From an uncultured delta proteobacterium (lineage in GTDB: Bacteria; Desulfobacterota; RBG-13-43-22): DNA of 64,000 bases. Numbering within the stretch: position 1 is the stretch's first letter; the number at the start of each line of letters is the position of its first letter. Both the position numbers and the translations under genes were made by a program. Location of the stretch: positions 32,001-96,000 of the forward strand of contig CAWBOS010000013.1 in assembly GCA_963790475.1 (NCBI GenBank), written 5' to 3'. The notes under the pieces are model-generated. The model was not told the DNA's origin. It was given only the letters and a program-made list of their open reading frames with translations, and did not search any database. Below are positions 3,996 to 21,778 of this stretch, piece after piece.

Positions 3996-4071
3996 TCCCC
4001 GGTAGCTCAGTCGGTAGAGCGGGTGGCTGTTAACCACTTGGTCGGCGGTTCGAGTCCGTCCCGGGGAGCCA
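3996..4071 (+). tRNA. tRNA-Asn(GTT), CCA encoded
   Basis: 76-nt cloverleaf: acceptor tccccgg/ccgggga, D arm gctc/gagc, anticodon loop ctGTTaa, T loop ttcgagt, 3' gCCA. Confidence 0.97.
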
Positions 4072-4183
4072 TTTCGACGCGCAAAAGGGGCATTTTAAAA
4101 CAATGAATGCCCCTTTTGCTTGCTCAAGGCCTCCGGCCGAATAGAAAAAGGCGTCGAAATGGTCCTGAGTTTATCGAAGGGCC
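4069..4183 (+). repeat. structured leader copy 1 (outer stem, inner hairpin, REP-like cctgag..tcgaagg motif)
   Basis: ccatttcgacgc (4069-4080) pairs with gcgtcgaaatgg (4151-4162) and encloses aaaaggggcatt/aatgcccctttt; the leader recurs at 19501 and 21587. Confidence 0.8.
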
Positions 4184-4206
4184 AATTATTTTATACCCTA
4201 AACCTT

Positions 4207-4509
4207 ATGCCCGCTTGGCTTTATATCCTCCGGCTCAAATCTGGTGCCTTATACGTTGGCGCCACTACCAACCTGGATCAACGTTATAAAGATCATTGCG
4301 CAGGGAAAGCCTGCCGAACTACAAAGATAGATCCACCCTTAGCCCTCGTTCATTCCGAAGAATTCCAGACAAATAGTGATGCCCGAAAACGTGAGGCTCA
4401 AATAAAACGCTGGACAAGGGTAAAAAAGGAAGCGTTAATAGCAGGTGATCTTGATAAACTGAAACTCCTCTCAAGGTCAAAGAAAAGGATTCCCAGAGAA
4501 GAAGAGTAA
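4207..4509 (+). CDS. small GIY-YIG nuclease family protein (copy 1)
   Basis: WLYILRLKSGALYVGAT...QRYKDH...ARKREAQIKRWTR, a YhbQ/UPF0213-like GIY-YIG; ATG at 4207. Confidence 0.88.
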   Translation: MPAWLYILRLKSGALYVGATTNLDQRYKDHCAGKACRTTKIDPPLALVHSEEFQTNSDARKREAQIKRWTRVKKEALIAGDLDKLKLLSRSKKRIPREEE

Positions 4510-4531
4510 ACCGATTGGGGAAGGAATCCAC

Positions 4532-4552
4532 CGAGTCCGTCCCGGGGGGCCA
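4532..4552 (+). repeat. direct repeat of tRNA-Asn 3' end (att-like, 1 mismatch)
   Basis: cgagtccgtcccggggggcca versus tRNA 4051-4071 cgagtccgtcccggggagcca. Confidence 0.9.
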
Positions 4553-4674
4553 AAAATATAAGTGAGATGGCTGTAGCTTAAAAACATTATGACAACTTAA
4601 ATTTCGTTTAGGACACATGATTCAAATTGTCAAAGTTAAAGAATTGACCCCTTCCCCTGTTCCGTATTTCCTAG

Positions 4675-6657
4675 CCCATCTTCCGCAGTTAGAAAGCATG
4701 GAAGACGCGATATCAAATAGTTACGACAAGAATTAGGGCATTTTCTTCACTACATTTTCAATAATTTTTGGTTTGTTGGGGAGCAGAATTTTCAATCTCT
4801 GAAGCAGCACTTTGAGTTCCTTTGAGGGAGTAGCCACCATTCTGAGCCGGAGGGTTCTCTCCCGCGCCGGTAGTAGCACATCCAAAGATTTCAATTCCCG
4901 CAACTCCTCCAACAGCTTTCTTGGGGCGGTACCGAGTCCCGAGGCTTTCATCCATTGCTGGAGCGTTCGCCACATAGTCAGCGCCAAGAAGCAGACCAGG
5001 ATATGAGCCTGGGTCCGTTCCTGTTTTTGATGGAAGATCGGTCGCATTCCCAGATCATGTTTCTCGGTACGGAATGAATCTTCCACTTCCGTCAGTTGGA
5101 TGTAGGTATTCCATAGGACTTTCGGGTCACTTTCGGTCCAGTTGGTGCGCAAGATGTAGCTACCGCCGGTCTCCAAGGCCCACTGTTGCCGTTGTTCGTT
5201 CTTCTTGACTTCTAGGGAAAGCGGTGCGTCTTTTCCGGTACCGGTCTCTATGACTGTAATATTGAACAACGAGGCCGCACGTTTATTTTGTTCCAGCAGT
5301 CGCCCTATTCTCCGCTCGACTTTCTGCTTGTCTCGGAGCTTGCCGGTTTCGGCCTGGCGGGCCAGGTGATCCAGTTGGCTTTCCAGTCGGGTCAAAAAGT
5401 GGTTTAGAATGGCGTTTTCTTTCTCCTTCCGGCCTTGAGACCGGCACAGGACAAAGATTTCATCCGTTCCTTCCGGCGAGCAACAGAGCTTGACCTCAAC
5501 ATCAGGTTGGACCGCTTCCCAGTTCTGTTCGAAAAGCTGCTGCTCAAACTTCTTCAGCATCACTTTTGGGGTGCCGACCAAATAGCGGGCACCGACTTTG
5601 CGCATAAACTCCAGATTCTCCTCACTCACCATGCCGCGATCCATAACCCAGATCCGGTTGGCTTGGCCGTATTTGGCCTCCATCATCTGAACCATCTCTT
5701 GGGTCGTCGTAACATCCGGTCGATTGCCGTCAAAAACCTCAAAGGCTATGGGAAAGCCCTCTCGGGTGGCCACCAGGCCGATGCAGACCTGGGGACAATC
5801 TGGACGACTGTCCCGGCTGTAACCCCTCTTGGCCTGGGCATTGCCCTTGGCGGTCCCCTCAAAATAGGTGGAGGTTATGTCATAAAACAAAAAATCAAAG
5901 CTACTGCCGAACAGTTCCCCATAACGCTCCTGAAGGTGACGGCTTAAGGCATCCTTGTGGGGAAGCAAGGCATCCAGGGCACGATAAAGCCGATCCTCAT
6001 TGATCTTATAGTCGGCCACTCCCAGCAGATCGTCTAAGGCCGTCTGGCCATACCAAAACTCGGCCATCTGTAATTCCGACGATGGGGCGCAAAAGCGTCC
6101 AAGAACTAAAATAGACGCCATGATCGACCAAGGAATCTCTTCCCGGTTGGAAGGAATATGATCTCGGCAGAACCTGGCAAGCCCCAGTTTGTTCCACAAA
6201 AGCAACCCCAAATAGACATCGCCGAAGCCTCTGAGTCGCTCGACGCTTACGCCATGGATATTGACCGTGGCCCAAGATGGGGGGTCTTCCCCCTGCTCAA
6301 ACAGTTCAGGTCCAGGTAGAGGCTTTCCGGAAAGAATCCGTCCGATCTCCTCCCAACCTATCCGCTCTTCCCGATCAAGGCCAGGAAGTTTCCCTATCGT
6401 CGCCACTACTCGCTGACGGGGCCCTCGGGCAGTACGGACCGACTCAACTAAAAGCCAGCTCTCGTACTCCGCTCCACCTTTCTTTTTGGTCGCACGCCGG
6501 AGATACATAACCCCATTATCTCCGTTCCCACAGCACCTGGCAAGGGGGTGGTCTTCACTACATCCAATTTTCAAAGATCAGGACTTGAAATCATTTAACA
6601 ATTCCTGAAAATTCATCACGTTTTTCTTGATTTTTTCTCCAAACTGCGGAAGATGGG
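4675..6657 (-). mobile_element. IS1634-family insertion sequence, copy 1 (1983 bp)
   Basis: Terminal IRs cccatcttccgcagtt / aactgcggaagatggg; flanks CTAG and TTAA do not match. Confidence 0.9.
4733..6508 (-). CDS. IS1634-family DDE transposase
   Basis: MYLRR..KK.G..Y..W.LVES.RT..GPRQR start, YDITSTYFEG, GYSRDSRPD, VMDRGM, VEDSFR, LGMRPIFH. Confidence 0.9.
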   Translation of the reverse strand: MYLRRATKKKGGAEYESWLLVESVRTARGPRQRVVATIGKLPGLDREERIGWEEIGRILSGKPLPGPELFEQGEDPPSWATVNIHGVSVERLRGFGDVYLGLLLWNKLGLARFCRDHIPSNREEIPWSIMASILVLGRFCAPSSELQMAEFWYGQTALDDLLGVADYKINEDRLYRALDALLPHKDALSRHLQERYGELFGSSFDFLFYDITSTYFEGTAKGNAQAKRGYSRDSRPDCPQVCIGLVATREGFPIAFEVFDGNRPDVTTTQEMVQMMEAKYGQANRIWVMDRGMVSEENLEFMRKVGARYLVGTPKVMLKKFEQQLFEQNWEAVQPDVEVKLCCSPEGTDEIFVLCRSQGRKEKENAILNHFLTRLESQLDHLARQAETGKLRDKQKVERRIGRLLEQNKRAASLFNITVIETGTGKDAPLSLEVKKNEQRQQWALETGGSYILRTNWTESDPKVLWNTYIQLTEVEDSFRTEKHDLGMRPIFHQKQERTQAHILVCFLALTMWRTLQQWMKASGLGTAPRKLLEELRELKSLDVLLPARERTLRLRMVATPSKELKVLLQRLKILLPNKPKIIENVVKKMP

Positions 6658-6823
6658 TTAAAGTGACCGCTACAGGATTTTTACTTTTCGATTGACGAAT
6701 AAGCTCCTTTTGTTCACTCAGAAACCGATAGTCAATACTGCCTGGCCGAAACGGTCTACAATAATAGGCACACTGAAGTGTATCTATGCCATGAAGGAGT
6801 AAATTTATTGATTCTGCGGCCAT
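6658..6823 (-). pseudogene. N-terminal fragment of a putative rolling-circle replication initiation protein, truncated by IS1634
   Basis: LLLHGIDTLQCAYY...QKELIRQSKSKNPVAVTL resembles N-termini of Rep_trans-like initiators (recognised from memory); reading frame is cut at the IS end. Confidence 0.55.
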
Positions 6824-6825
6824 AG

Positions 6826-7308
6826 CTATTTAATCTTTACCTGCCGTTGCCATTTGCGGCGTGGTGGTGCCATTAGGGATTTACCTTTCCAGTCGTAATC
6901 CCCCATGGCCTCTTTCTCAATTTCTTCAATACTTTTTCCTTCAAGGTCTGCGGCCCACGCTTTACATTCGGAAATCGGAACGTATCCGCTTGAAGGTAAA
7001 CGACCATCAACTAAGGATTTTCTACCTTTCAATAACCTTGAATCTTTAATTTCATGAAAGATAAATACCGTTAAACGGCCTTCCTTTAACCGCTTATGAA
7101 GTCCCGCTCGGGATACCCTCGCGTATCCGGCAGCTCCACCGGGCGAAACAAGGCCGCCTGCTTTACATATTCTCGCAACGGCATGATACCAAACCCTGTA
7201 ATCATTCTCAGTTCCAAACCTCCTAAAGATTCGCGTCCCTTCATCCTGGTCCCCTATAAATCGGCGCAATTTATCCGGTATTTCCACATAAGGGAATTCT
7301 TTTTTCAT
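6826..7308 (-). CDS. putative HTH DNA-binding protein (excisionase/regulator-like)
   Basis: VSPGGAAGYARVSRAGLHKRLKEGRL HTH-like segment; RBS ggag upstream; ends 2 nt before the Rep fragment start. Confidence 0.55.
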   Translation of the reverse strand: MKKEFPYVEIPDKLRRFIGDQDEGTRIFRRFGTENDYRVWYHAVARICKAGGLVSPGGAAGYARVSRAGLHKRLKEGRLTVFIFHEIKDSRLLKGRKSLVDGRLPSSGYVPISECKAWAADLEGKSIEEIEKEAMGDYDWKGKSLMAPPRRKWQRQVKIK

Positions 7309-7324
7309 GTTAGTATCTCCAATT

Positions 7325-7401
7325 AATTAACACCAAGTTTATTTAATTATTAAAATAAAAATAATTCTCTGTCAAGAAAAAAATTAACACCAAGTTTATT
7401 T
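7325..7401 (-). promoter_or_regulatory. promoter flanked by two 20-bp direct repeats (operator-like)
   Basis: aattaacaccaagtttattt at 7325-7344 and 7382-7401; minus-strand TTGACA at 7370-7375 lies between them. Confidence 0.6.
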
Positions 7402-7422
7402 TTTTAGACGACGTGTATTTTC

Positions 7423-7524
7423 AACCCCCCGTGTTACTATAACGGGGGGTTCGATCGCCCTTCAGAGGTATGAGTTATCTACAGCCCTGCCCGGCTACCC
7501 CAGGGCCGCGGGCGTGGCTGTAGA
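7423..7524. other. two GC-rich hairpins; candidate rolling-circle origin
   Basis: aaccccccgt-gttactata-acggggggtt (7423-7451) and tctacagcc...ggctgtaga (7478-7524). Confidence 0.5.
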
Positions 7525-7666
7525 AAACCCGATATTGCATTTATTTGAATTAATCCGAGGTATCAACTACTTCCTGCTATACGTACCAAAGTGATGATTG
7601 ACAGATAAGGAGATTTTGATCATCATCTGTCTGATTTTCTTATTGATTTAAGAAAAGGAGACAGAG

Positions 7667-8686
7667 ATGACGAGCCTATATAGTGATATACAGAAGGCAG
7701 ATATAACTTCAGATCATTTTAAGAGTCCCACCCCAACCCCACCCCGTTACTATCAGACGCGGTTACGATTCACCTCCCATCTTGAAGGAAGTTTAGAAGC
7801 GCTCGGAAAGATTTTGAAACGGTTGGCCGGAATGGACCTCCCGGGGAGAGATCAGGTAGCCGCCTATCTTCGCCACTTAACTCACGGCAATCGCCGACCG
7901 AGAACCCTGTACAGTCGGTTTGGCACCCTCGTTCTTTTTCTGGGACTGATACGGGACACCGGCAAAGGCTTTGAAGCCATTACCCGAAGTGATGTAGAGG
8001 CCTTTATCGAGCGAGAGCAGGACCGGGGGATTAAGATAACGACGATCAGGACCAGGCTGGTGAGTGTGCAGGCCTTTCTCCGCTATCTGGTGGAGGAAGG
8101 GATCGTTTCCGGGGATATATTCCGCAGTCGGAGGATACGGTTGCAGTTACCGGAGCGGCTGCCGCGGGCCATGGATCCTGACGATCTGCAGAAGCTGCTT
8201 TCCGTTATTCATGATATCCGTGACCGAGCTTTGATCCTGGTCTTGTTGCGGACTGGCCTGCGGATCGGCGAGTTGCTTCAGACCAAGATGACCGACGTCC
8301 ATCTCCAGGAGCGGAAGATAGAGATTTACGAAGGGGAGAAGAACCGCCTGGGGAGGGTGGTCTATCTCAGCGACGATGCAGTTATAGCCCTGCGGAAGTG
8401 GTTGAAGAAGAGGAATCCCGGAGAGGAGTACCTGTTCTATGGGAAGAACGTCGAGACTTTGTGTTACAGCACCGCCCGGATCATCTTTCTGCGATATATA
8501 TCCAAGGCGGGATTAGAGGGCAAGGGATATTCCCTGCATACCCTGCGTCACACCTTTGCCACGGAGTTGCTCAACGCCGGCATGCGTCTGGAGTGCCTTC
8601 AGGTCTTGCTGGGACACCGGAGCATCGAGGAGACGCGACGTTATGCCCGGCTGACCGATAAGACCCGGGAGGCAGGAGTATTTTAA
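7667..8686 (+). CDS. tyrosine recombinase/integrase A (probable frameshift near the C-terminus)
   Basis: Catalytic motifs RTGLRIGE, HTLRHTFAT, LGH, RRYA; a shifted frame continues EQEYFKAMSKIE..., paralleling integrase B's QRDYFKAME. Confidence 0.88.
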   Translation: MTSLYSDIQKADITSDHFKSPTPTPPRYYQTRLRFTSHLEGSLEALGKILKRLAGMDLPGRDQVAAYLRHLTHGNRRPRTLYSRFGTLVLFLGLIRDTGKGFEAITRSDVEAFIEREQDRGIKITTIRTRLVSVQAFLRYLVEEGIVSGDIFRSRRIRLQLPERLPRAMDPDDLQKLLSVIHDIRDRALILVLLRTGLRIGELLQTKMTDVHLQERKIEIYEGEKNRLGRVVYLSDDAVIALRKWLKKRNPGEEYLFYGKNVETLCYSTARIIFLRYISKAGLEGKGYSLHTLRHTFATELLNAGMRLECLQVLLGHRSIEETRRYARLTDKTREAGVF

Positions 8687-8718
8687 GGCCATGTCGAAGA
8701 TCGAGAGGAGGAAGAGTC

Positions 8719-9606
8719 ATGATCGATGCGATCCTGAACTGGCGGCGATTTTTGAAGCGAAGGAACTGTTCGCCCCATTGCCTGAAGAACTATCTGAACC
8801 TCATTAAACACTTTGTCATCTGGTTGGATGTGCCGGTGGAGGAGGTTACCTCTGCGGTCGTCTCCCGCTACATTGAGCATCTGATGAGGAAGAGACTGGC
8901 GCCCAAGACGGTCAACTGTCACTTAAACGGCATCCGCCAGTTCTACCATTATCTGCGGGACGAAGAAGGTCTGACCATCACCAATCCCATCAGGAAGCAT
9001 CACTTCCAGAAGATGTCCAGGCCCCTTCCCCGGCACCTGAGAGATGAACAGGTGGAGACCTTCTTCCAGGCCATCAAGGGGGCCCGCGACCGGGCCATGT
9101 TCATGCTTATGCTTAGATGCGGGTTACGGGTGGAAGAAGTCGCCCATCTCACCATAGGCGTCATCGACGTCAAGCGCAGGACCATCCTGGTGGAAGACGG
9201 CAAGGGTGGAAAAGACCGGGTCGTCTATATGAGTCATGATGCCCTTCAGGCCCTGACCGCCTATCTGAGGGTGAGGCCTCTATCCAGAGCCAGTAGGATC
9301 TTTCTGGCGGAAAAGGCTCCCTGTAAGGGACAGCCCATTTCCATTCGTGGCATTCAGAGGCGCATGGAATATTATGCCCGCCAAGCGAAGCTCAAGGTGT
9401 CCTGTCATCATCTTCGACACACCATGGCCACCCAGCTGCTCAACGCTGATGCCGATCTCTGCACCATCCAGGATCTCTTGGGTCATAGCAATGTGAAAAC
9501 CACGCAACGGTACTGCCGGATATCAAACCTGAAAGTGCAGAGAGACTACTTCAAGGCCATGGAGGTGATCAGGCTACAAACGGCTGGCAACCCAAATAAT
9601 CCTTGA
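8719..9606 (+). CDS. tyrosine recombinase/integrase B (XerD-like)
   Basis: CGLRVEE, GKGGKDR, HHLRHTMAT, LGH, QRYC. Confidence 0.9.
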   Translation: MIDAILNWRRFLKRRNCSPHCLKNYLNLIKHFVIWLDVPVEEVTSAVVSRYIEHLMRKRLAPKTVNCHLNGIRQFYHYLRDEEGLTITNPIRKHHFQKMSRPLPRHLRDEQVETFFQAIKGARDRAMFMLMLRCGLRVEEVAHLTIGVIDVKRRTILVEDGKGGKDRVVYMSHDALQALTAYLRVRPLSRASRIFLAEKAPCKGQPISIRGIQRRMEYYARQAKLKVSCHHLRHTMATQLLNADADLCTIQDLLGHSNVKTTQRYCRISNLKVQRDYFKAMEVIRLQTAGNPNNP

Positions 9607-9825
9607 CAAAAGAACTAAACTATGAAATTTTAAACAGTACCTAACCCATTAACTTCAATAAGAAAATCAGATTTTAGTACGTATAGCTTCCTGTAGTCTT
9701 GTAAGTTCCATTTGTGAAAAATCCAAAGACTTCAAATACAAATCAATTTGCAAGGTCCATTCCTGCAAAGTCCCTTTTTCTTCAGAAGCCCCCTCTGTAC
9801 CCTTTCCTTGGCCCCTTTTTTCGCC

Positions 9826-9853
9826 TTGACCGCGTTCTTTTTCTTGTTATAAT
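9826..9853 (+). promoter_or_regulatory. promoter pointing toward the attI-like site (Pc-like)
   Basis: TTGACC-N16-TATAAT with extended -10 TGnTATAAT. Confidence 0.5.
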
Positions 9854-11675: not shown

Positions 11676-13650
11676 GTAGAGTAGAGAGCTGGAACCTGAC
11701 TGGTGCCACTTTTGGTCTTTCCGATGCACGCATCTACTACGAGCTATAGTGGTCAGCCGGGGCCAGCCCTCCCTCATCAAACCGTGCATGCGGTTTTCCC
11801 GCACACGGCTTTCCGATGTCCTTCACCGCAGGGCATGCGCTTTGTCCAGCCCGCCGAAGTCGGCACCTTGTAGAGACCGTACTTCTCGTATAGCGCCCTT
11901 CGTTTGAACCTGAGATACCCCATCTTTCTATCTCTGACCTTGTGCCGCTTTCGCAGGTGTGTGATCAACCGCTCTTCCACATGCCCCCGTATCCGAGCCA
12001 GTGTGGTACTGCAATTGCGGTAATGAAAGTAGCCGACCCATCCCCGCACGGTGGCGTTAACTTCATTCACCACCCACTCGATAGGCATAATGGTTCGGGA
12101 TCGATCCGTAATTGCCGTCACTCGGTCTTTGATAGATTGTATGGCTTTCTTTGAAGGTTGGACGTGAGGGTAGTACTTCCCCGTTCTATTGCTCCGTCCC
12201 ATCCGGATCGTATATCCAAGGAAGTTGTAACTCCCTTTGTAGGCATTGACGGTCTTCGTCTTGGCCTCGTTCAGGGTAAGCCCCAGTTTCGCCAGTATCC
12301 GTCGCAGCATCTGCATCGGGCGTTCGGTTCCGCACCGGCAGAGGACAACAATATCGTCCGCATAGCGCACGATCCGTGCCCCGAGTTTCTTCTCCAACTG
12401 ATGCCGTTCCCATATCCTGTCCATTAGATGCAGGTACAGGTTCGCCAATATTGGTGAGATTACCCCCCCTTGCGGGGTGCCTTGACGGTTTTCCTTGCCA
12501 CCGCCGATGTTCTTTTTCTTTCCATCCTGGTCCACTTCCATGACCGGGGCTTTGAGCCACATCTTGATGATGCGCAATATCTCACCATCACTGATCCGCT
12601 CGGCAACTACAGCCAGGAGGTTGGCGTGGGGAATGGTATCGAAGTATTTGCTCAGATCGGCGTCGATGATCTCCGTGTACCCTCTATGCATGGCCGAGGC
12701 TACATCATCAACGGCGTCGTGGGCTGACTTCCTGGGCCTAAACCCGTATGAGCTGTCGCAAAAGTCTGCTTCAAAGATCGGTTCGATGACCAGCTTTACG
12801 GCCATCTGGGCTACCCGGTCCCGTATCGTCGGTATACCCAATGGCCTTTTGTCACCGTTGGCCTTGGGTATCATCACCCGCTTTACCGGGTCCGGTCGAT
12901 AAGTCTTGCTCTTCAGTGCTTCTTCCAACTCCGCCATAAAGGCGGTTATCCCTTCTTCCGTCTCGATAGCCTCAAAGGTAACTCCGTCTATTCCGGCGCT
13001 CCCTTTATTGGCCCGGACAAGACTGTAGGCATGACTGAGAATGTCCGCCCGGTACACCTTGTCATATAAGGCGTAGAAACGATAGGCTTTCTCCTGCTTG
13101 GCCTTCCGGTAGAGCTTCCTCTGTAGTGTCCTGATACTTTCCGGGGTTGTTAGCATCGCTGCAATCCCCTCTCCCTCCACTCTTCGGTTACTTGAACAAA
13201 GCAGGGTCCCTTCCCTCGGGCCGGGTTTTGTTGTCCCTTGCCCTCAAGCGGTACTATGAACCCCTCCGACTCCCGATACGGCCCAATACGATTTCGTCTC
13301 CTTATACGTATCGGTTGATGTTCCTCTTCCATCACCTCATCGGGTCTCCAGCACTGGACTGTTTATCTTCCACCGCATGCCGTCCTTGCTACCCCGGAAG
13401 ATCTCAAAGGCTGCTTCCGTTTTCCAAGCCCTTAACATCGGCCTTCCCCATATGTCCACTGGGTCGGCATCTTCACTTTATATTTACGAGGCTACCTATT
13501 GGTTCATTTCCATTACGGCCTGTGGCTTTGCCAATTGGGAACTTACGACCCCCGGTTACCCGAACGCCGCTCCCTTGATCTACCGGGGTGAACGGACAAC
13601 TCCCCGGACGGGACTTTAACCCGTAAGTGTAAACAGTTGTTACTGCGTAC
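11676..13650 (-). mobile_element. group II intron (5' GTACG..., 3' ...CTCTAC)
   Basis: Domain V AAGCCGTGTGCGGGAAAACCGCATGCACGGTTTGA at ~11777-11812; 3' end ...CTCTCTACTCTAC; 5' end GTACGCAGTAACAAC; encodes an RT. Confidence 0.88.
11777..13156 (-). CDS. ltrA: group II intron reverse transcriptase/maturase (no endonuclease domain)
   Basis: RPLGIPTIRDR, SYGFRP, GTPQGGVISPILAN, RYADD, domain X GWVGYF; likely start MLTTPES. Confidence 0.93.
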   Translation of the reverse strand: MLTTPESIRTLQRKLYRKAKQEKAYRFYALYDKVYRADILSHAYSLVRANKGSAGIDGVTFEAIETEEGITAFMAELEEALKSKTYRPDPVKRVMIPKANGDKRPLGIPTIRDRVAQMAVKLVIEPIFEADFCDSSYGFRPRKSAHDAVDDVASAMHRGYTEIIDADLSKYFDTIPHANLLAVVAERISDGEILRIIKMWLKAPVMEVDQDGKKKNIGGGKENRQGTPQGGVISPILANLYLHLMDRIWERHQLEKKLGARIVRYADDIVVLCRCGTERPMQMLRRILAKLGLTLNEAKTKTVNAYKGSYNFLGYTIRMGRSNRTGKYYPHVQPSKKAIQSIKDRVTAITDRSRTIMPIEWVVNEVNATVRGWVGYFHYRNCSTTLARIRGHVEERLITHLRKRHKVRDRKMGYLRFKRRALYEKYGLYKVPTSAGWTKRMPCGEGHRKAVCGKTACTV

Positions 13651-13691: not shown

Positions 13692-14558
13692 ATGACGGAA
13701 CATATGCCAACTCGAAACGAAGTACTCGATGCAATTCGTAGAGCTGGACAAGCTCTTGGTCAACCATTGTCACGCTCCAAGTTTCGTTCACACTCAGGAA
13801 TGACTGAATATCAAGTGCTGACGCACTTCCAAAGTTGGAGAGCAGCACTTAAAGCAGCCGGAATGCAATCTGATGATACAAACATACGTATTGATGATGT
13901 TGAACTACTTCAAGATTGGGGGGAGTTAGTCCGGAAGAATCGAGAAATACCAACAAGACATCAATACAGACGCGAAGGCAATTTCGGTGTTAATACCTTC
14001 GCAAGTCACTTTGGTCCATGGTCCTCGATTCCTGACTCTTTCCGAAGGTTCGCTATGGGCAAACCTGAATGGGCTGATGTTATTGCCCTCATGCCTCAGC
14101 CCCCGTCTCAACTACCAACTCCATCACAGCAAAACGAAATAGCACCCGAAATTAACGTATTTCCATCACTCCCGTCTGGCGTTCATCCTACCAAGTTAGA
14201 CAGTAGCCCAACCTATGGGAATCCAATTGACTTTCGGGGCATGAGGCATGAACCAATAAATGAAAACGGTGTAATTTTTCTTTTTGGTATGGTGGCAATG
14301 GAACTTGGATATTATGTTGAGGCTGTTCAAGCAGGTTTCCCAGACTGCGAAGCCAAGAGGCAGATTTCCGCCGGAAAATGGCAACGCGTCCGTATTGAAT
14401 TTGAATACGAAAGCCGCAATTTCAGAGATCACGGACATTCGCCCCAAGGCTGTGACCTTATCGTCTGTTGGCGTCACAATTGGTCTGATTCTCCACAAAC
14501 AATTGAGATCCTGGAACTTATGCAAGTGATCAAACAATTATCAAAATCTGATGACTGA
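13692..14558 (+). CDS. cassette gene: two homing-endonuclease-associated repeats plus PD-(D/E)XK-like nuclease domain
   Basis: Repeats ..HFQSWRAAL.. and ..HFGPWS..; C-terminal GFPDC...RIEFEYES...CDLIVCWRHNW. Confidence 0.7.
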   Translation: MTEHMPTRNEVLDAIRRAGQALGQPLSRSKFRSHSGMTEYQVLTHFQSWRAALKAAGMQSDDTNIRIDDVELLQDWGELVRKNREIPTRHQYRREGNFGVNTFASHFGPWSSIPDSFRRFAMGKPEWADVIALMPQPPSQLPTPSQQNEIAPEINVFPSLPSGVHPTKLDSSPTYGNPIDFRGMRHEPINENGVIFLFGMVAMELGYYVEAVQAGFPDCEAKRQISAGKWQRVRIEFEYESRNFRDHGHSPQGCDLIVCWRHNWSDSPQTIEILELMQVIKQLSKSDD

Positions 14559-14563
14559 CATAA

Positions 14564-14620
14564 GCCCAACAAGCAAATCCACCGGACCCTCGTTCCTCGG
14601 GCCGGTGATTATTTCGTTAA
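14564..14620 (+). other. attC site (59 bp when reconstituted), R' box interrupted by IS1634
   Basis: R'' GCCCAAC, 5-bp spacer, L'' aatcCacc, ccggAccc/gggccgg, L' ggtgatt, atttc, then GTTAA[IS]TC; both extra bases are present. Confidence 0.88.
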
Positions 14621-16603
14621 CCCATCTTCCGCAGTTAGAAAGCATGGAAGACGCGATATCAAATAGTTACGACAAGAATTAGGGCATTTTCTTCACTACA
14701 TTTTCAATAATTTTTGGTTTGTTGGGGAGCAGAATTTTCAATCTCTGAAGCAGCACTTTGAGTTCCTTTGAGGGAGTAGCCACCATTCTGAGCCGGAGGG
14801 TTCTCTCCCGCGCCGGTAGTAGCACATCCAAAGATTTCAATTCCCGCAACTCCTCCAACAGCTTTCTTGGGGCGGTACCGAGTCCCGAGGCTTTCATCCA
14901 TTGCTGGAGCGTTCGCCACATAGTCAGCGCCAAGAAGCAGACCAGGATATGAGCCTGGGTCCGTTCCTGTTTTTGATGGAAGATCGGTCGCATTCCCAGA
15001 TCATGTTTCTCGGTACGGAATGAATCTTCCACTTCCGTCAGTTGGATGTAGGTATTCCATAGGACTTTCGGGTCACTTTCGGTCCAGTTGGTGCGCAGGA
15101 TGTAGCTACCGCCGGTCTCCAAGGCCCACTGTTGCCGTTGTTCGTTCTTCTTGACTTCTAGGGAAAGCGGTGCGTCTTTTCCGGTACCGGTCTCTATGAC
15201 TGTAATATTGAACAACGAGGCCGCACGTTTATTTTGTTCCAGCAGTCGCCCTATTCTCCGCTCGACTTTCTGCTTGTCTCGGAGCTTGCCGGTTTCGGCC
15301 TGGCGGGCCAGGTGATCCAGTTGGCTTTCCAGTCGGGTCAAAAAGTGGTTTAGAATGGCGTTTTCTTTCTCCTTCCGGCCTTGAGACCGGCACAGGACAA
15401 AGATTTCATCCGTTCCTTCCGGCGAGCAACAGAGCTTGACCTCAACATCAGGTTGGACCGCTTCCCAGTTCTGTTCGAAAAGCTGCTGCTCAAACTTCTT
15501 CAGCATCACTTTTGGGGTGCCGACCAAATAGCGGGCACCGACTTTGCGCATAAACTCCAGATTCTCCTCACTCACCATGCCGCGATCCATAACCCAGATC
15601 CGGTTGGCTTGGCCGTATTTGGCCTCCATCATCTGAACCATCTCTTGGGTCGTCGTAACATCCGGTCGATTGCCGTCAAAAACCTCAAAGGCTATGGGAA
15701 AGCCCTCTCGGGTGGCCACCAGGCCGATGCAGACCTGGGGACAATCTGGACGACTGTCCCGGCTGTAACCCCTCTTGGCCTGGGCATTGCCCTTGGCGGT
15801 CCCCTCAAAATAGGTGGAGGTTATGTCATAAAACAAAAAATCAAAGCTACTGCCGAACAGTTCCCCATAACGCTCCTGAAGGTGACGGCTTAAGGCATCC
15901 TTGTGGGGAAGCAAGGCATCCAGGGCACGATAAAGCCGATCCTCATTGATCTTATAGTCGGCCACTCCCAGCAGATCGTCTAAGGCCGTCTGGCCATACC
16001 AAAACTCGGCCATCTGTAATTCCGACGATGGGGCGCAAAAGCGTCCAAGAACTAAAATAGACGCCATGATCGACCAAGGAATCTCTTCCCGGTTGGAAGG
16101 AATATGATCTCGGCAGAACCTGGCAAGCCCCAGTTTGTTCCACAAAAGCAACCCCAAATAGACATCGCCGAAGCCTCTGAGTCGCTCGACGCTTACGCCA
16201 TGGATATTGACCGTGGCCCAAGATGGGGGGTCTTCCCCCTGCTCAAACAGTTCAGGTCCAGGTAGAGGCTTTCCGGAAAGAATCCGTCCGATCTCCTCCC
16301 AACCTATCCGCTCTTCCCGATCAAGGCCAGGAAGTTTCCCTATCGTCGCCACTACTCGCTGACGGGGCCCTCGGGCAGTACGGACCGACTCAACTAAAAG
16401 CCAGCTCTCGTACTCCGCTCCACCTTTCTTTTTGGTCGCACGCCGGAGATACATAACCCCATTATCTCCGTTCCCACAGCACCTGGCAAGGGGGTGGTCT
16501 TCACTACATCCAATTTTCAAAGATCAGGACTTGAAATCATTTAACAATTCCTAACAATTCATCACGTTTTTCTTGATTTTTTCTCCAAACTGCGGAAGAT
16601 GGG
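14621..16603 (-). mobile_element. IS1634-family insertion sequence, copy 2, with TTAA target duplication
   Basis: Near-identical to 4675-6657; ttaa at 14617-14620 and 16604-16607. Confidence 0.92.
14679..16454 (-). CDS. IS1634-family DDE transposase
   Basis: Protein identical to copy 1 in the ORF track. Confidence 0.9.
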   Translation of the reverse strand: MYLRRATKKKGGAEYESWLLVESVRTARGPRQRVVATIGKLPGLDREERIGWEEIGRILSGKPLPGPELFEQGEDPPSWATVNIHGVSVERLRGFGDVYLGLLLWNKLGLARFCRDHIPSNREEIPWSIMASILVLGRFCAPSSELQMAEFWYGQTALDDLLGVADYKINEDRLYRALDALLPHKDALSRHLQERYGELFGSSFDFLFYDITSTYFEGTAKGNAQAKRGYSRDSRPDCPQVCIGLVATREGFPIAFEVFDGNRPDVTTTQEMVQMMEAKYGQANRIWVMDRGMVSEENLEFMRKVGARYLVGTPKVMLKKFEQQLFEQNWEAVQPDVEVKLCCSPEGTDEIFVLCRSQGRKEKENAILNHFLTRLESQLDHLARQAETGKLRDKQKVERRIGRLLEQNKRAASLFNITVIETGTGKDAPLSLEVKKNEQRQQWALETGGSYILRTNWTESDPKVLWNTYIQLTEVEDSFRTEKHDLGMRPIFHQKQERTQAHILVCFLALTMWRTLQQWMKASGLGTAPRKLLEELRELKSLDVLLPARERTLRLRMVATPSKELKVLLQRLKILLPNKPKIIENVVKKMP

Positions 16604-16924
16604 TTAATCACTCTTTCAAACGGAAATCATCAAATTTTTGTGTTTGATGGCCTCCAAATTAGTAGGTGGAAGTTCTGATAGAATTACGACATCGATATAT
16701 TTTCTTCCCATTGCCCATTCTCATCTTTCCGGGCGAGCCAAAGCTTGAAAAAGGCCCGATATTCGGGCCTTTTTCTTCAATATCACTGCCCTTGACTTTG
16801 CCATTTTCTTCCTTGACCCTATTTCTTCATTACCTTATACTCGGTTTATCCTGATAACTTCTGATCAATAAAGAGTTTTTCACTATTAAGGGAATTTATC
16901 CGGGCTCGCGGAGGTAATGTTATT

Positions 16925-18094
16925 ATGTATATCACGAATTTAAAGTTGAAAAACTGGCGCAACTTTCATGAAGCGGAGGTCCTTTTAACTCAAACCTCTT
17001 ATATCATCGGGCCGAATGCCTCTGGGAAATCAAACCTTCTTGATGTCCTACGATTTCTCCGCGATGTCTGCAAGCCTGCTGGCGGCGGGCTTCAAAAGGC
17101 AGTGAAGGACCGAGGTGGAATAACTAAGCTCCGCTGTCTTCATGCCCGGCGCGACCCGGAAGTAAAAATTGAGGTCTCTATTTCTGAACGTGTCGATGAT
17201 CCATCCTTTGCCTGGCGGTATATACTAGGTTTGAAGTCGGAAGGTAAGGGTGCTCAACGCCTCATTGTTTCAATCGAGGAGGTCTGGCAAAGGGATAAGC
17301 AGATTCTTAAACGCCCTGATAGCGATGACCTCAAGGATGACCGATTGCTCACGGAAACCCATTTGGAACAGACCAGGGCTAACGCCAATTTCCGAGAAAT
17401 TGTGGATTTCTTTAGTGGTATCACCTACCTCCATCTGGTTCCCCAATTGTTAAAGTATGGTGATAAGATCGGAGGTAACCGGTTGGAAGATGATCCCTTT
17501 GGTCAGGGTTTCCTTGAGAGGGTGGCCAAAAGTCAGGTGAAGACCCGCGAGGCGCGGCTAAAGAAGATTAATGAAGTCCTGTCGATTGCCGTTCCTCAGT
17601 TCAAAGAACTACATTTTGCCCAGGACAAAGTAACTGGAATGCCCCACCTTGAAGCCCTTTATGAGCATTATCGGCCCAATGCGGGATGGCAGCGTGAAGA
17701 TCAGTTCTCAGATGGCACCTTAAGAATCCTGGGTATACTATGGTCTCTTCTCGAAGGAAATTCTTTGCTTCTCATAGAAGAGCCCGAACTTTCACTCCAT
17801 CAAGCTGTGGTAGAACAGTTGCCGGCCCTGATAGAACGTACCCAGCGCTCCAGTAAGCAGCAACGCCGTCAGATTATCATAAGCTCTCACAGCGAGGCAC
17901 TGCTTAGTAACAAAGGTATAGACGCCCGCAGTGTAGTTGTTTTGGAACCCAGTCATGAAGGTACGAAACCCCGCACAGTGAACGAAGCAGAAAAGAAAGG
18001 CCTTGATGCCGGTTTTTCTGTAGCGGAGGTGGTATTGCCCCAAACACGCCCGAAACGAATCGAGCATATGGGGCAGATGAGGCTTTGGGAATGA
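16925..18094 (+). CDS. ABC/AAA_21-type ATPase
   Basis: Walker A GPNASGKS, signature FSDGT, Walker B LLIEEPE, H-loop SSHS. Confidence 0.85.
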   Translation: MYITNLKLKNWRNFHEAEVLLTQTSYIIGPNASGKSNLLDVLRFLRDVCKPAGGGLQKAVKDRGGITKLRCLHARRDPEVKIEVSISERVDDPSFAWRYILGLKSEGKGAQRLIVSIEEVWQRDKQILKRPDSDDLKDDRLLTETHLEQTRANANFREIVDFFSGITYLHLVPQLLKYGDKIGGNRLEDDPFGQGFLERVAKSQVKTREARLKKINEVLSIAVPQFKELHFAQDKVTGMPHLEALYEHYRPNAGWQREDQFSDGTLRILGILWSLLEGNSLLLIEEPELSLHQAVVEQLPALIERTQRSSKQQRRQIIISSHSEALLSNKGIDARSVVVLEPSHEGTKPRTVNEAEKKGLDAGFSVAEVVLPQTRPKRIEHMGQMRLWE

Positions 18095-18696
18095 AAGGGG
18101 TTTATATTGCCACGGAAGATGCATTAAGTGAGGCCGTGGCGGAACGCCTTATTTTGGAGGAAAATTTCGGTCTAACCGTGGTAGGTCGATTGGGCCGAAG
18201 GGGGAACGAATATCTCCGACAGAGATTACCTTCGCTCACCAAGTTATCCCACTCGATTCCGGTTTTACTTCTTACGGATCTGGATCGTGCTGAATGTCCT
18301 GCCGCATTAATTCAGAAATGGTACAAAGCAAGAGAGTTACCAAAAATGATGCTCTTCCGTGTAGCAGTGCATGAAACCGAAGCCTGGCTTCTGGCCGATC
18401 GCCAGGGATTTGCCCAGTTCTCCGGTGTGCCGTTTCATCGAATTCCGGGAAAACCAGAATTGCTCATCGACCCCAAAACGACTCTGCTCAACCTTGTAAA
18501 AAGATATGGCAAAAAAACTATCAGGGCCGATATTCTTCCCGTAAAGGGCTCAACGGCCAGGGTCGGGCTAGTTTATAATCCGGCTTTGTGCGCGTTTGTT
18601 CAAGAATCATGGTCTCCGGATAGAGCTGCAAAGGTTTCCAGTAGCCTGAATCGGACACGGCGCCGCCTCCGAGAAATGCGTCTTCTTCTGGGATAG
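18091..18696 (+). CDS. TOPRIM-like partner protein (DUF4276-like)
   Basis: IATEDALSE, LTDLD (DxD) and ETEAWLLAD motifs; ATGA overlap with the ATPase stop. Confidence 0.65.
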   Translation: MKGVYIATEDALSEAVAERLILEENFGLTVVGRLGRRGNEYLRQRLPSLTKLSHSIPVLLLTDLDRAECPAALIQKWYKARELPKMMLFRVAVHETEAWLLADRQGFAQFSGVPFHRIPGKPELLIDPKTTLLNLVKRYGKKTIRADILPVKGSTARVGLVYNPALCAFVQESWSPDRAAKVSSSLNRTRRRLREMRLLLG

Positions 18697-18747
18697 ATAA
18701 ATTTTATGGTGATGGAGTAACGGCCGGTATCTCAGGATGGCATCTAA

Positions 18748-18972
18748 TCCGAAGGAATAATTTCCGATCCTGGGAATTACCAGGCTTACACCAGACTTAG
18801 AACCGAGTTAAAGGGTAGCCTTTTGGATAAGGACGGACAGAAGTTTATCCAGAGCGACGGTTCAAAAAATTATCGTATCTCCACCCATCCGGACTTTATT
18901 ACCTACGATAGGAATAAACTCCTAAATCACCCAGGCATCAGAGTCAGGGACCTTGCCAAAAAATTGCCCTAA
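18748..18972 (+). pseudogene. C-terminal gene fragment, possibly winged helix
   Basis: Start-less open frame SEGIISDPGNYQAYTRLRTELKGSLLDKDGQKFIQSDGSKNYRISTHPDF...KLP*. Confidence 0.3.
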
Positions 18973-19500
18973 CGGGCTTAGACACATTTACCAGGGTTGA
19001 AAGGAGGCAACAATTAAAGATCGCCTTAGCCGGTATCGACACCCTTGAAGAATTGGCTTTGGCGAGGAAAACTTTCTATCGCCGGTGGGCCCGAGACAAA
19101 GCGGTATTCGATCAGGCAATGGAAAAGGCAAAAAGGGACCAACGTGCTCTCGAAGATAAAAAGTACGACAAACCACCACAGAGAAAGAGGAAGGGAAATT
19201 AACGAAACATTGAAGCCAATCGCAGATAGTACGGGCACTATCTGATCCCCATGATTTTGCTATAGCTCGACAGGAAGAAACTATGAACCTTTGCTTGCAC
19301 TAGTAAATTACGGATTTGTACTTGATGTTCCGAGGCAATTTGACGGCTTTGCCAGATTGAATATCGTTCATTGAACGCAACAAATTGATTTTTCAATAAT
19401 AATATTTTTGGAAATGAGACGGATTCGTGTATGCCCCTTGATAGTCTTTTCCATCTCAAGCCCCAGCCCATCCCACAAAAGCACGCTTTGGGATACCAAT

Positions 19501-19700
19501 CCGGGAAGCCATTTCGACGCGCAAAAGGGGCATTTCAAAACAATGAATGCCCCTTTTGCTTGTCCTTCGATAAACTCAGGATTCCGAGCAGGTCGAGGAA
19601 CTCAAGGCCTCCGGCCGAATAGATAAAGGCGTCGAAATGATCCTGAGCCTATGGTCCTGAGCCTGTCGAAGGACCTGTCGAAGGACTTATCGAAGGGCCA
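19501..19700 (+). repeat. structured leader copy 2 with degenerate tRNA 3' end and expanded REP-like motifs
   Basis: ccgggaagccatttcgacgcgcaaaaggggcatt matches 4061 onward; extra ccttcgataaactcagg and tandem cctgtcgaagga units. Confidence 0.85.
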
Positions 19701-19722
19701 ATTATTTTATGCCTTAAACCTT

Positions 19723-20025
19723 ATGCCTGCCTGGCTCTATATCCTCCGACTCAAATCTGGTGCCTTATACGTTGGCGCTACTACCAACATAGAACAACGC
19801 TACAAAGACCATCTTTCAGGAAATGCCTGTCGAACTACTAATCTTGATCCCCCAGTTGCCTTAATCCATTCCGAAGAATTCCATTCATTCAGTGATGCCC
19901 GAAAACGTGAGGCTCAAATAAAACGCTGGACAAAGGTAAAAAAGCAAGCGTTAATCGCCGGTGATCTTGAGAAACTGAAACTTCTCTCAAGGTCAAAGAA
20001 AAGGATTCCCAGAGAAGAAGAGTAA
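19723..20025 (+). CDS. small GIY-YIG nuclease family protein (copy 2)
   Basis: Same length as 4207-4509 and highly similar, with many synonymous differences. Confidence 0.88.
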   Translation: MPAWLYILRLKSGALYVGATTNIEQRYKDHLSGNACRTTNLDPPVALIHSEEFHSFSDARKREAQIKRWTKVKKQALIAGDLEKLKLLSRSKKRIPREEE

Positions 20026-20160
20026 ACCGATTGGGGGTGGAGGGCACCTCTTGCCGAGCTTGCGACGAATAACGGCTATTTTCGACGCAATAAATGCGGA
20101 GAATGTTCTTGCTTTTGCGGTGAATAAGCAGCATAATATCCGCCAGGAGCGCGGAGAATT

Positions 20161-21264
20161 ATGGAATATATCCACGATAGGAAGAATTGGCCAAAACTGA
20201 CTTGGAGTCCGGAGAGAATTGCAGGGCAGCTTGCCGGTGTACGTCATCGTCAAGGACGGCTCATCGGACGCATGGAGGGGTTGGGTTTTTCGCTTCGCAA
20301 CGAAGCCGTTCTGCAAACCTTGACTGAGGATATTCTCAAATCCAGCGAAATCGAAGGTGAAAAGTTGGACAGGGACCAGGTACGATCTTCTATCGCACGT
20401 AGAATGGGACTTGATATCGGGGGACTTTTGCCAGTTGACAGGCACGTCGAGGGAGTTGTTGAAATGATGCTGGATGCCACCGGGCATTACGCCGATCCGT
20501 TGACCGAAGAACGTCTATTTGCCTGGCACTCCGCTCTGTTCCCAACTGGACGCAGTGGCATGAGGAAAATCGTGGTTGGCGGCTGGCGCGACAATAAGTC
20601 CGACCCCATGCAGGTGGTTTCCGGCCCAATCGGCAGGAAGAAGGTGCATTATCAAGCCCCAGAGGCTAATCATGTCCCCAGGGAAATGCGTGCTTTCCTG
20701 AAATGGTTTAATGGTTCGCAAATGATAGATCCGGTACTGACGGCAGGTCTAGCGCATCTCTGGTTTGTGACGATCCATCCTTTTGAGGATGGCAACGGCC
20801 GGATTGCCCGGGCGATTGCCGATATGGCGCTGGCGCGTTCGGAAAATAGCAGGCAGCGTTTTTATAGCCTGTCGGCGCAAATTCGCCTGGAGCGAAATGC
20901 CTATTACGACCAGCTGGAAAAAACCCAGAAAGACGGCCTGGAGGTAACTTTCTGGATAGAATGGTTCCTGGGCTGCCTGGATCGCGCCATTGAAGGCGCA
21001 GAACGTATTCTGGCCGGCCTCTTCCGCAAGGCTCGATTCTGGGAAGAGCATGTCCATGAACCTTTCAATGAACGCCAGCGGGCCATCATCAACCGGCTCT
21101 TTGACGGTTTTGAAGGAAAGCTGTCTTCTTCCAAATGGGCCAAGCTTGCCCAATGCTCCCAGGACACCGCCCTTAGGGATATTGACGATCTGGTGAAGCG
21201 CGGCGTCTTGTCGAAAGAGCCAGGTGGCGGTCGCAGCACCAGTTATGCTTTGGCAGATCCATAG
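20161..21264 (+). CDS. Fic family protein (DUF4172-like N-terminus, C-terminal HTH)
   Basis: HPFEDGNGRIAR Fic motif; inhibitory SSEIEG motif; C-terminal GGRSTSY. Confidence 0.92.
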   Translation: MEYIHDRKNWPKLTWSPERIAGQLAGVRHRQGRLIGRMEGLGFSLRNEAVLQTLTEDILKSSEIEGEKLDRDQVRSSIARRMGLDIGGLLPVDRHVEGVVEMMLDATGHYADPLTEERLFAWHSALFPTGRSGMRKIVVGGWRDNKSDPMQVVSGPIGRKKVHYQAPEANHVPREMRAFLKWFNGSQMIDPVLTAGLAHLWFVTIHPFEDGNGRIARAIADMALARSENSRQRFYSLSAQIRLERNAYYDQLEKTQKDGLEVTFWIEWFLGCLDRAIEGAERILAGLFRKARFWEEHVHEPFNERQRAIINRLFDGFEGKLSSSKWAKLAQCSQDTALRDIDDLVKRGVLSKEPGGGRSTSYALADP

Positions 21265-21507
21265 GAGAGGTGAGGCCACTCAATTCGGGCTCGGCCCTGT
21301 TCCCGGCGAATCCCAATCCTGATCTCAGCAAGACTGGCTAGCAGCGCCAAATCGTTTGGCTCGCGACATCGGTGTTCTGTTAGAGGAGCCTTTTTAGGGG
21401 TAAAAAGGTCCTTTTAAGGCCCTTTTTATCTATCAGTTTTGATAAAATATACTTAGAATTAAATTAGTTCGTCTGGTACGACCCCCATCTCAACCCCCAT
21501 CTCACTC

Positions 21508-21563
21508 GGAAACTGAAACTCTTATCAAAGTCAACGAGAAGGATTCCCGGAGAACAAGAGTAG
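21508..21563 (+). pseudogene. 3' remnant of a third GIY-YIG gene
   Basis: KLKLLSKSTRRIPGEQE* versus KLKLLSRSKKRIPREEE*. Confidence 0.75.
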
Positions 21564-21586
21564 ATCGATTGGGGGGTGGAATCCAC

Positions 21587-21778
21587 CGAGTCCGTCCCGG
21601 GGAGCCATTCGGCACGCGTAAGGGGCACACCATTTAAATGGGTGCCCCTTTTCGCTACTCATGGCAGGCCATTTCGAATTAAAGCTATTGCGAGCGTGTT
21701 GAATGGACCTGAGCCTATGGTTCTGAGCCTACGGTCCTGAGCTCGTCGAAGGATCTGTCAAAGGACCTGTCGAAGGAT
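21587..21778 (+). repeat. perfect tRNA-Asn 3' end repeat (attR-like, 21587-21609) plus structured leader copy 3
   Basis: cgagtccgtcccggggagccatt equals 4051-4073; followed by aaggggcac/gtgcccctt hairpin and cctgagc/gtcgaagga repeats. Confidence 0.88.

Follow-up and report, generated by a model that had tools for sequence, protein, structure and literature searches.

The stretch of DNA analyzed here, in the following called the window, comprises 64,000 nucleotides of contig CAWBOS010000013.1 from the genome of an uncultured delta proteobacterium (GCA_963790475.1; 6.34 Mb in 20 contigs, referred to as G000), and all coordinates are given as positions within it. The window contains one tRNA gene, a tRNA-Asn, which is also the sole tRNA-Asn gene found when all 20 contigs were scanned. 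It is directly followed by a unit of 481 bp (start to start), consisting of a leader, a single open reading frame (ORF) for a 100-aa protein with a GIY-YIG nuclease domain and a repeat of the tRNA end (Table 1). No further ORF, and in particular no element-encoded tyrosine or serine recombinase, was found in this unit. The last 21 nt of the tRNA gave three matches genome-wide at up to three mismatches, all of them inside the window, and as no match is expected in shuffled sequences, chance is excluded as their origin. A preliminary description of this DNA had reported the 481-bp unit, its small gene and the flanking 21-nt direct repeats as well as a second, diverged unit, and all of these were recovered.

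The second unit, with its partial tRNA end, leader and 100-codon gene, and the parts of a third lie 15-17 kb downstream of the first, with DNA of insertion sequences (IS), an intron and recombinases in between. Unit 2 lacks a right-hand tRNA end and resembles unit 1 only up to about 12 nt past the stop codon. The third set of parts consists of a gene tail (21509-21563, stop codon at 21561-21563) that is 85% identical to unit 2, a linker, a perfect tRNA end and a gene-less leader running to 21778 with closing helix, hairpin and four motif copies; all four parts had been listed in the preliminary description, which placed the tRNA end about 2 nt too far to the right. The genes of units 1 and 2 both have 100 codons and share 86.5% DNA and 85% protein identity. 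As had been remarked earlier, many of their differences are silent (28 of the 41 differing bases, out of 303, are third codon positions), and the suggested comparison of substitution rates resulted in a dN/dS of 0.21 (dN 0.087, dS 0.42). The two genes are old copies, both under purifying selection. They are also the only close copies in G000, and the former statement that the module multiplied in this genome has to be regarded as weak, with two copies and a remnant at one locus and a dS of 0.42. We infer that at least three units accreted at the sole tRNA-Asn and were later split by a 15-kb block and a Fic gene. The idea that the linker in the window is a decayed tRNA copy starting at the anticodon loop was rejected, the alignment score lying within the range of shuffles.

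Table 1. Features of the tRNA-Asn locus and its units, with positions in the window.
Feature	Position	Strand	Remarks
Promoter-like site TTGAAA-17-TATACT (sigma-70-like)	3762..3790	+	Upstream of the tRNA locus
Pseudo-tRNA-Asn remnant	3829..3995	+	First 17 nt of the tRNA, three CCCGC..GCGGG hairpins, T-arm piece, spacer
tRNA-Asn (GTT)	3996-4071	+	Called by both ARAGORN and Rfam
tRNA-end repeat copy 1	4051-4071	+	Last 21 nt of tRNA-Asn
Unit 1 leader	4069-4184	+	Structured part including the tRNA CCA; 135 nt between tRNA and ORF
Unit 1 GIY-YIG gene	4207-4509	+	100 codons; PF01541 at 6.3e-16
Unit 1 linker	4510-4531	+	Between the gene and tRNA-end copy 2
tRNA-end repeat copy 2	4532-4552	+	20/21 bases match; right boundary of unit 1
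Unit 2 partial tRNA end	19501-19511	+	ccgggaagcca; 10/11 bases match
Unit 2 tRNA end and leader	19501-19722	+	P1, hairpin, 3-4 motif copies; leader longer than that of unit 1
Unit 2 GIY-YIG gene	19723-20025	+	100 aa; PF01541 at 1.4e-15 on the longer frame 19651-20025
Remnant of third and fourth unit	21509-21778	+	Gene tail, linker, tRNA end, gene-less leader
tRNA-end repeat copy 3	21587-21607	+	Perfect match

Compared with the sequences of the PDB, the unit 1 protein matched 1zg2 (1.7e-11) and 1ywl (7.7e-11), which places it in UPF0213, the bacterial Slx1-like branch of the GIY-YIG superfamily. Residues Y6, R26, H30 and E63 are invariant among 21 relatives and Y16 is conserved in at least 90%; the protein thus possesses the catalytic domain of this branch, which is recognized by its Tyr, Tyr, Arg, His and Glu residues. 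The NCBIfam model for group I intron endonucleases gave a score of 16.9 bits, far from its cutoff of 56. Eukaryotic members of the Slx1-like branch are known to cut branched DNA.

The kind of cassette found in the window is designated type A. Its parts follow one another in a fixed order, namely a leader after the CCA of the tRNA, one or more T-loop-like hairpins (GGNCC-TGAGC..GTCGAA-GGNCC), the ORF and, in about a quarter of the loci, a hairpin together with a copy of the tRNA end. According to its pairing pattern, the leader would fold as a three-helix junction whose closing helix includes the tRNA CCA. In unit 1, the closing helix P1 pairs 4069-4080 (CCATTTCGACGC, including the CCA) with 4151-4162 (GCGTCGAAATGG), the P2 hairpin pairs 4083-4094 with 4106-4117 and is followed by TTTT, and P3 is a short GGCC..GGCC helix of 4128-4131 with 4135-4138; in unit 2, P1 is formed by 19509-19520 and 19629-19640. 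The motif hairpin of unit 1, TGGTCC-TGAG..TCGAA-GGGCCA, lies 3′ of the closing helix at 4160-4184 and corresponds to the general T-loop-like form TGGNCC-TGAGC..GTCGAA-GGNCCA. Of 88 loci, 78 have this motif no more than 160 nt upstream of the ORF, and of 85 loci, 24 have it downstream; it was absent from all 156 control windows.

Covariation was assessed in an alignment of 20 relatives, on which three helices (P1, P3 and the stem of the motif) were counted. Of all cells, 95.4% were paired, compared with 28-49% when the partners were slid by 1-3 columns, and compensatory changes were observed in seven pairs and 27 cells, which none of 500 shuffles reached. Furthermore, a one-base deletion in CCATT(T)CGA is mirrored on the other strand of P1 in the same five sequences. 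The sequence of P2 varies by locus, but by inspection, a hairpin is evident in every leader read. A handful of G-U pairs lean to the sense strand. Being palindromic in DNA, the leader helices may have their functional form either as RNA or as single-stranded or cruciform DNA. The leader matched no family in Rfam 15, of which just three models passed the threshold in the window, one for the tRNA and two for group II introns; a permissive scan of 3700-4700 added nothing but miRNA-type matches at chance level. A simple terminator scan of the same interval called none; in the leader hairpin, the loop measures 12 nt and no more than four Ts follow, and the term terminator-like would be descriptive only.

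Relatives of the type A cassette were taken from a genome scan (50 loci), from a metagenome scan (best 80 of 567 confirmed relatives) and from related genomes (four additional loci); the type A set contained 99 loci, all outside the window, and 94 after removal of near-duplicates. In 42 of these 94, the cassette adjoins a complete tRNA gene, 37 times for Asn and five times for Gln, with the leader starting exactly after the CCA. In another 12, a complete tRNA-Asn lies no more than 700 nt away, a further unit or a remnant standing in between, and 19 begin with a partial tRNA-Asn end followed by the leader. Of the remaining loci, six show a leader-like start without a recognizable tRNA end, four have no leader and 11 offer too little upstream sequence. 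The linked tRNA-Asn genes vary in their T-arm and acceptor sequences, which indicates that several host lineages are represented, and strong matches were found in five of 301 sampled genomes of the phylum, each in a different family. Among more distant relatives, one with 51% identity (L049) follows a tmRNA gene and carries two tandem leader-like repeats, one (L059, from a candidate-phylum genome) follows a tRNA-Gln, and one of which only a gene fragment is left (L076) follows a tRNA-SeC. No type A relative was detected in the viral contigs scanned. These counts fit the earlier expectation that homologs would be associated with tRNA ends and the leader, an association that is indeed widespread; the expected duplication of the tRNA end is less common, the local 12-nt tRNA end being repeated (with at most one mismatch) within 300 nt past the gene in 16 of 70 loci.

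Where present, this right-hand copy is rather uniform. In 11 of the 16 aligned right ends, the tRNA stretch measures 20-21 nt and extends from T-loop position 56/57 to the CCA; counted among these is the tRNA-Gln right end (L120), which aligned over 18 nt and, in another comparison, over about 20 nt with one mismatch. The other five are shorter (17-19 nt) or extend further into the tRNA. Usually, the tRNA copy stands directly 3′ of the hairpin motif (..CGAAGG|GAGTCC..), and in 10 of 20 right ends inspected, it is followed by another leader, complete or truncated, so that the spacer between successive ORFs consists of motif, tRNA end, leader and motif. At one locus (L157), the right-end copy derives from a foreign tRNA-Asn variant, indicating that this unit arrived with its own piece of tRNA. 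Differences between the repeat copies place the crossovers in the last 5-12 nt of the tRNA at L157 and L040. An insertion inside the T-loop with a replacement tRNA end on the left was considered as well; it agrees with the constant junction between motif and G57 but conflicts with L157, which carries the foreign variant at its right end. Type A cassettes that are 90-93% identical were found in unrelated downstream contexts, with homology ending 14-81 nt past the stop codon. Directly downstream of three type A cassettes on unrelated contigs (L127, L147, L181), genes for AbiEii or AbiEi (type IV toxin-antitoxin) were observed, and SIR2-like and Schlafen/AlbA_2 genes stand downstream of other type A loci.

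In the taxonomic family of the window's organism, the upstream gene and the tRNA-Asn are syntenic in all 18 relatives, whereas the downstream side varies. Here, type A was found in four relatives, a different cassette designated type B in six (one truncated), a third short GIY-YIG (type C) in one, a solo leader in one, integrase-type remnants in two and plain trailers in four; thus, some GIY-YIG gene occupies the site in 11 of 18. Type B encodes a different small GIY-YIG protein (about 35% identical; PF01541 at 1.5e-17) in a layout of hairpin, ORF and a scrambled partial tRNA copy, in which arms are replaced by CCCGC..GCGGG hairpins and which ends in the last 17-23 nt of the tRNA. At five loci (L208, L193, L195, L212 and L213), a GC-rich hairpin of about the same size stands in place of the anticodon or T arm after the type B gene, and annotated type B ORFs run into this tRNA-like DNA, which gives them odd C-terminal tails. 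When the 301 phylum genomes were searched with type B, 25 loci of this type or related to it turned up, distributed over 22 genomes. A tRNA-Asn, tRNA-Asp or tRNA-Ala gene precedes 17 of the 25, and in 11 of these 17 the matching tRNA end is repeated after the gene. Decayed copies were seen as well: L009 has a frameshift, L048 and G004 are truncated, and there are solo leaders.

The clearest view of gain or loss comes from two congeners of G000. Compared with the empty site of G005, G008 contains a 396-bp type B cassette exactly after the CCA and bounded by a tRNA-end repeat, between flanks that are 91% identical over 1403 nt. The homolog of the flank 3′ of tRNA-Asn in the two congeners is located in G000 on contig C15 (at about 201476-202845); either the tRNA-Asn locus of G000 has been rearranged or the assembly is split there. 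Besides G000, type A was found in two of the 13 other genomes searched in the genus (one being G002, of which a second match, L030, is a distant GIY-YIG), the others having type B, type C or nothing at the site. Occupied and unoccupied versions of one site in relatives, as expected for a homing gene, are thus present. An empty site, which the preliminary description had suggested looking for in reads, was found for type B in this pair of genomes, and congeners vary in accordance with it; a clean pair for type A was not obtained. At L040, L157, L161 and L182, both types stand in one tandem array, with B ahead of A or with A ahead of a truncated B. Judged from these comparisons, cassettes appear to be gained and lost whole; they stack in tandem, and one array can hold different nuclease types. 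Tandem stacking and mixed arrays suggest that the tRNA gene acts as the primary site and the tRNA end with leader as the spacer between cassettes.

A pseudo-tRNA-Asn remnant directly upstream of the window's tRNA gene is missing in G005, G009, G004 and G007, whose sequences match the window to 3846 and resume at about 3990, and present in G010, G008 and G013, which match throughout. Compared with some congeners, it appears to be a 5′-end duplication or an insertion. By repeating the 5′ end of the tRNA, it mirrors the 3′-end repeats; its CCCGC..GCGGG hairpin linker is the same that ends type B cassettes. The promoter-like site at 3762-3790 is the only one able to feed both the tRNA and unit 1, but with one site found against 1.1 expected from shuffles, it is weak evidence.

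As no recombinase is encoded within the unit, the surroundings of type A cassettes were checked for one. The first large downstream ORF at 19 type A loci was a recombinase in none of them; these ORFs encode transporters, peptidases and the like, or accessory functions such as AbiE components. Two features bear on a comparison with tRNA-integrating islands: direct repeats from the tRNA 3′ end next to an intact tRNA gene, as in such islands, are present, whereas an own tyrosine or serine recombinase is lacking, both in the one-ORF unit and among the 19 neighbors. Integrase-type remnants at tRNA-Asn in the same family have a different left end, their repeats of 41-49 nt starting in the anticodon loop, while cassette repeats measure 20-23 nt; one of these remnants contains a frameshifted integrase, the C-terminal piece of which matches PF00589 at 7.8e-4. 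These observations, together with the relatives and the presence/absence pattern, agree with the preliminary description in that a discrete module without integrase is tied to tRNA 3′ ends, and speak against the objection raised there, that the repeats might be by-products of large integrase-driven islands.

All of this makes it quite probable that the units are discrete cassettes, mobile or subject to insertion and deletion by some mechanism. More specifically, we tentatively propose, at slightly under an even chance, that they are integrase-free cassettes of about 0.4-0.5 kb at the 3′ ends of tRNA and tmRNA genes, with a minimal Slx1-like GIY-YIG nuclease as sole gene, which spread in a homing-like manner. 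We infer that the nuclease may drive this spread. It would cut or nick T-loop-like or otherwise structured DNA at a site that is empty or only partly filled, and the cassette would then be copied in by recombination of the host, through homology with the conserved tRNA gene on the left and with the tRNA end or the leader on the right. The nuclease would recognize structure, i.e., the CCA-closing junction and the T-loop-like GTCGAA hairpins, and not a long sequence; this is proposed because it is too small to hold a separate DNA-binding domain and because eukaryotic members of the Slx1-like branch cut branched DNA. The further-reaching view that the cassettes constitute a new class of mobile element, i.e., nuclease-only cassettes which use the segment from T-loop to CCA of tRNA and tmRNA genes as attachment sequence, form integron-like arrays and encode as their only enzyme a structure-recognizing GIY-YIG protein that would act on their own folded DNA (the CCA-closing helix and the T-loop-like hairpins), is rather doubtful at present. 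If true, it would also assign a first biological role to part of UPF0213. No description of tRNA-linked GIY-YIG cassettes in bacteria was found in a full-text literature search of open papers, supplements excluded.

Several points weigh against homing-like spread. Known homing endonucleases carry a sequence-specific DNA-binding part, and Pfam revealed nothing beyond the catalytic domain, and thus no separate domain of this kind, in the 100-aa protein. The tRNA beside a cassette is intact, and any site wholly inside the tRNA would hence persist, so that avoidance of self-cutting needs an additional explanation, e.g., that the trailer or a folded form is required. With 54 of 70 type A loci lacking a tRNA-end repeat after the gene, the duplication is no constant hallmark, and some tyrosine integrases also leave repeats of about 20 nt from T-loop to 3′ end. 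The protein tree (89 rows and 94 columns, built with a quick method after five rows with internal stops or of short length had been dropped and ten duplicates or truncated sequences skipped) did not resolve the branching; the Gln-linked copies are scattered in it, compatible with a single origin, and horizontal spread consequently rests on patchiness and context. The conserved leader could serve RNA processing or regulation instead of DNA mobility. Finally, none of the sequencing runs searched contained at least half of the words of the stretch, the best share being 0.12, and no RNA run containing it was listed.

Among the alternatives, the one that survives best, though in our estimation unlikely, is that the cassettes are att-flanked leftovers or satellites, moved in trans by integrases specific for the same tRNA or simply by RecA recombination between the repeats, with the nuclease as mere cargo that has a cellular role, e.g., in repair or defense. 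Tandem accretion and att-flanked elements without integrase are known from island traffic, as described in the available part of the source (PMC5704250). The array in the window is interleaved with recombinase- and IS-bearing DNA, the crossovers at L157 and L040 fall into the last nucleotides of the tRNA as they would in an att core, and the leaders found after half of the inspected right-end repeats could allow arrays to be built by recombination between leaders. On the other hand, decay should leave random remnants, whereas the content is always an intact GIY-YIG gene under purifying selection, and the same layout recurs at tRNAs for Asn, Gln, Asp and Ala. One integrase specificity would also not suffice for the start at T-loop position 56/57, which is shared by tRNA-Asn and one tRNA-Gln site, and integrase-type remnants at tRNA-Asn use the longer repeats mentioned above. 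In addition to the lack of recombinases among the 19 neighbors, the two recombinases of the window are Xer-like and score below every curated cutoff.

It is distinctly less probable that the GIY-YIG gene is a resident partner of the tRNA, co-transcribed with it, with the leader as a cis-acting RNA (for processing, attenuation or stability) and the repeats as side effects of a hot spot. Such a role would suit the strongly structured leader, which includes the CCA and has a hairpin and T run ahead of the ORF, the sense-strand lean of the few G-U pairs and the majority of loci without a second tRNA end; a fusion of prokaryotic Slx1-like GIY-YIG to a TrmH-type tRNA methyltransferase, reported in the part of the 2006 survey available (PMC1564403), hints at work on RNA as well. 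A resident gene, however, should neither be restricted to two of 13 congeners, with type B, type C or nothing elsewhere, nor be scattered over five of 301 genomes in five families, and it would account neither for the clean 396-bp difference between G005 and G008 nor for the heterologous tandem arrays. Moreover, the leader junction is hardly ever seen without the gene: a pattern restricted to the ATTTCGA and ATTCCGA forms gave 14 matches in the 301 genomes, of which nine were chance matches in coding DNA and five true junctions, four with the gene and the fifth a remnant. The analogy with REP/RAYT drawn in the preliminary description, in which the nuclease would mobilize short palindromes such as the hairpin motif around the genome, can hardly hold, since despite a small nuclease gene flanked by copies of the short motif, the motif is not dispersed (three matches in 6.3 Mb, two of them inside the units) and Pfam detected no HUH/Y1 domain in the unit proteins.

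The 15-kb block between the units combines IS with a group II intron and genes for Xer-like recombinases. One IS, whose 613-aa transposase belongs to DDE_Tnp_1/DUF4277, is present in two identical copies (4672-6620 and 14618-16566). The recombinase pair, another IS and the group II intron lie in the approximately 8 kb between these copies, so that a composite transposon is possible. The adjacent genes for the Xer-like tyrosine recombinases (339 and 295 aa; 7667-9606) lie 3-5 kb from the tRNA, and their products stay below the curated cutoffs for XerC, XerD and the integron integrase (TIGR02249: 72-112 bits, cutoff 265). The group II intron (11676-13617; Rfam D1-D4 and D5/6) has its RT/maturase ORF on the minus strand and is adjoined by a gene for a 288-aa protein with homing-endonuclease-associated HNH_repeat domains (13692-14558). 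An AAA_21 ATPase (389 aa) overlaps a weak DUF4276 protein (203 aa) at 16925-18696, a defense-type pair by its look, and a Fic/DUF4172 gene (20161-21264) lies between unit 2 and the third-unit remnant, where the right end of unit 2 would be expected. Further downstream, a C-rich element measuring about 42-52 nt (CCCCCCCGGCC..CCTATACG..CCCAGGATCAACGATCT) occurs four times at 22606-26330; these copies and two longer paired repeats are located between small ORFs. The region 38533-48480 contains three 300-nt repeats with 73-74% identity and nine copies of a 31-nt motif spaced by about 380 nt or multiples thereof, which are probably internal repeats of large genes.

The 3′ ends of tRNA genes are the classic landing sites of integrase-driven islands, and if the proposed homing-like spread is true, a common second occupant that needs no integrase would change the annotation of these hot spots. 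It would also explain the numerous small ORFs annotated as GIY-YIG nuclease family that read into tRNA-like sequence, and would point to T-loop-like and CCA-pairing structures as a concrete substrate with which a widespread nuclease family can be tested. A minimal system for site-directed insertion beside a universally conserved gene is a further possible consequence.

Several known systems share individual features with the cassettes. Seg proteins are larger than the cassette protein and carry DNA-binding modules. T4 SegB is described, in the accessible part of the report, as a free-standing GIY-YIG homing endonuclease encoded in the tRNA gene cluster of T4, which biases the inheritance of its own region (PMC2330249). 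A GIY-YIG gene among or beside tRNA genes and its presence or absence between relatives, as given there, are common to SegB and the cassettes (PMC2330249). In contrast to the cassettes, which gave no relative in the scan of viral contigs, Seg genes are phage-borne, and neither the duplication of a tRNA 3′ end nor a structured leader is described for them.

With tRNA-integrating islands and cis-mobilizable elements (CIMEs), which according to the available part of the source possess direct repeats from the tRNA 3′ end, keep the tRNA intact and can stack in tandem at one tRNA, the cassettes have precisely these three traits in common (PMC5704250). They differ in their size of 0.4-0.5 kb, in always carrying a GIY-YIG gene, in lacking an integrase in or beside the unit and in their short repeats of 20-23 nt. 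In integrons, single-ORF cassettes form arrays beside one primary site and are separated by structured spacers, imperfect palindromes with a length of about 100-200 nt. Arrays of single-ORF cassettes next to one primary site are, on this general background, a resemblance to the units studied here, which, unlike integrons, have no IntI and no attC, use a tRNA gene as primary site and always carry the nuclease itself as cargo. RAYT/REP and IS200/IS605 elements likewise consist of a minimal enzyme gene bracketed by short hairpins, but the cassette enzyme has a GIY-YIG and not an HUH fold, its hairpins are not dispersed and the insertions are tied to tRNA ends.

As to the protein, the stand-alone UPF0213/Slx1-like proteins BH0048 (1zg2) and EF2693 (1ywl) belong to the same family and also consist of the minimal domain without accessory domains. 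In the accessible part of the 2006 survey, prokaryotic Slx1-like GIY-YIG proteins are treated as mostly vertically inherited stand-alone domains, with tRNA involved only via the fusion to TrmH (PMC1564403). A linkage to tRNA genes, a leader or cassette behavior is not mentioned in that part (PMC1564403), and in these respects the cassette proteins differ from the family as treated there. Taken together, the comparison suggests that the element would work most like a free-standing homing endonuclease gene, while in appearance it resembles a tRNA-integrating island or CIME on a miniature scale and seems to form arrays in the way of integron cassettes.

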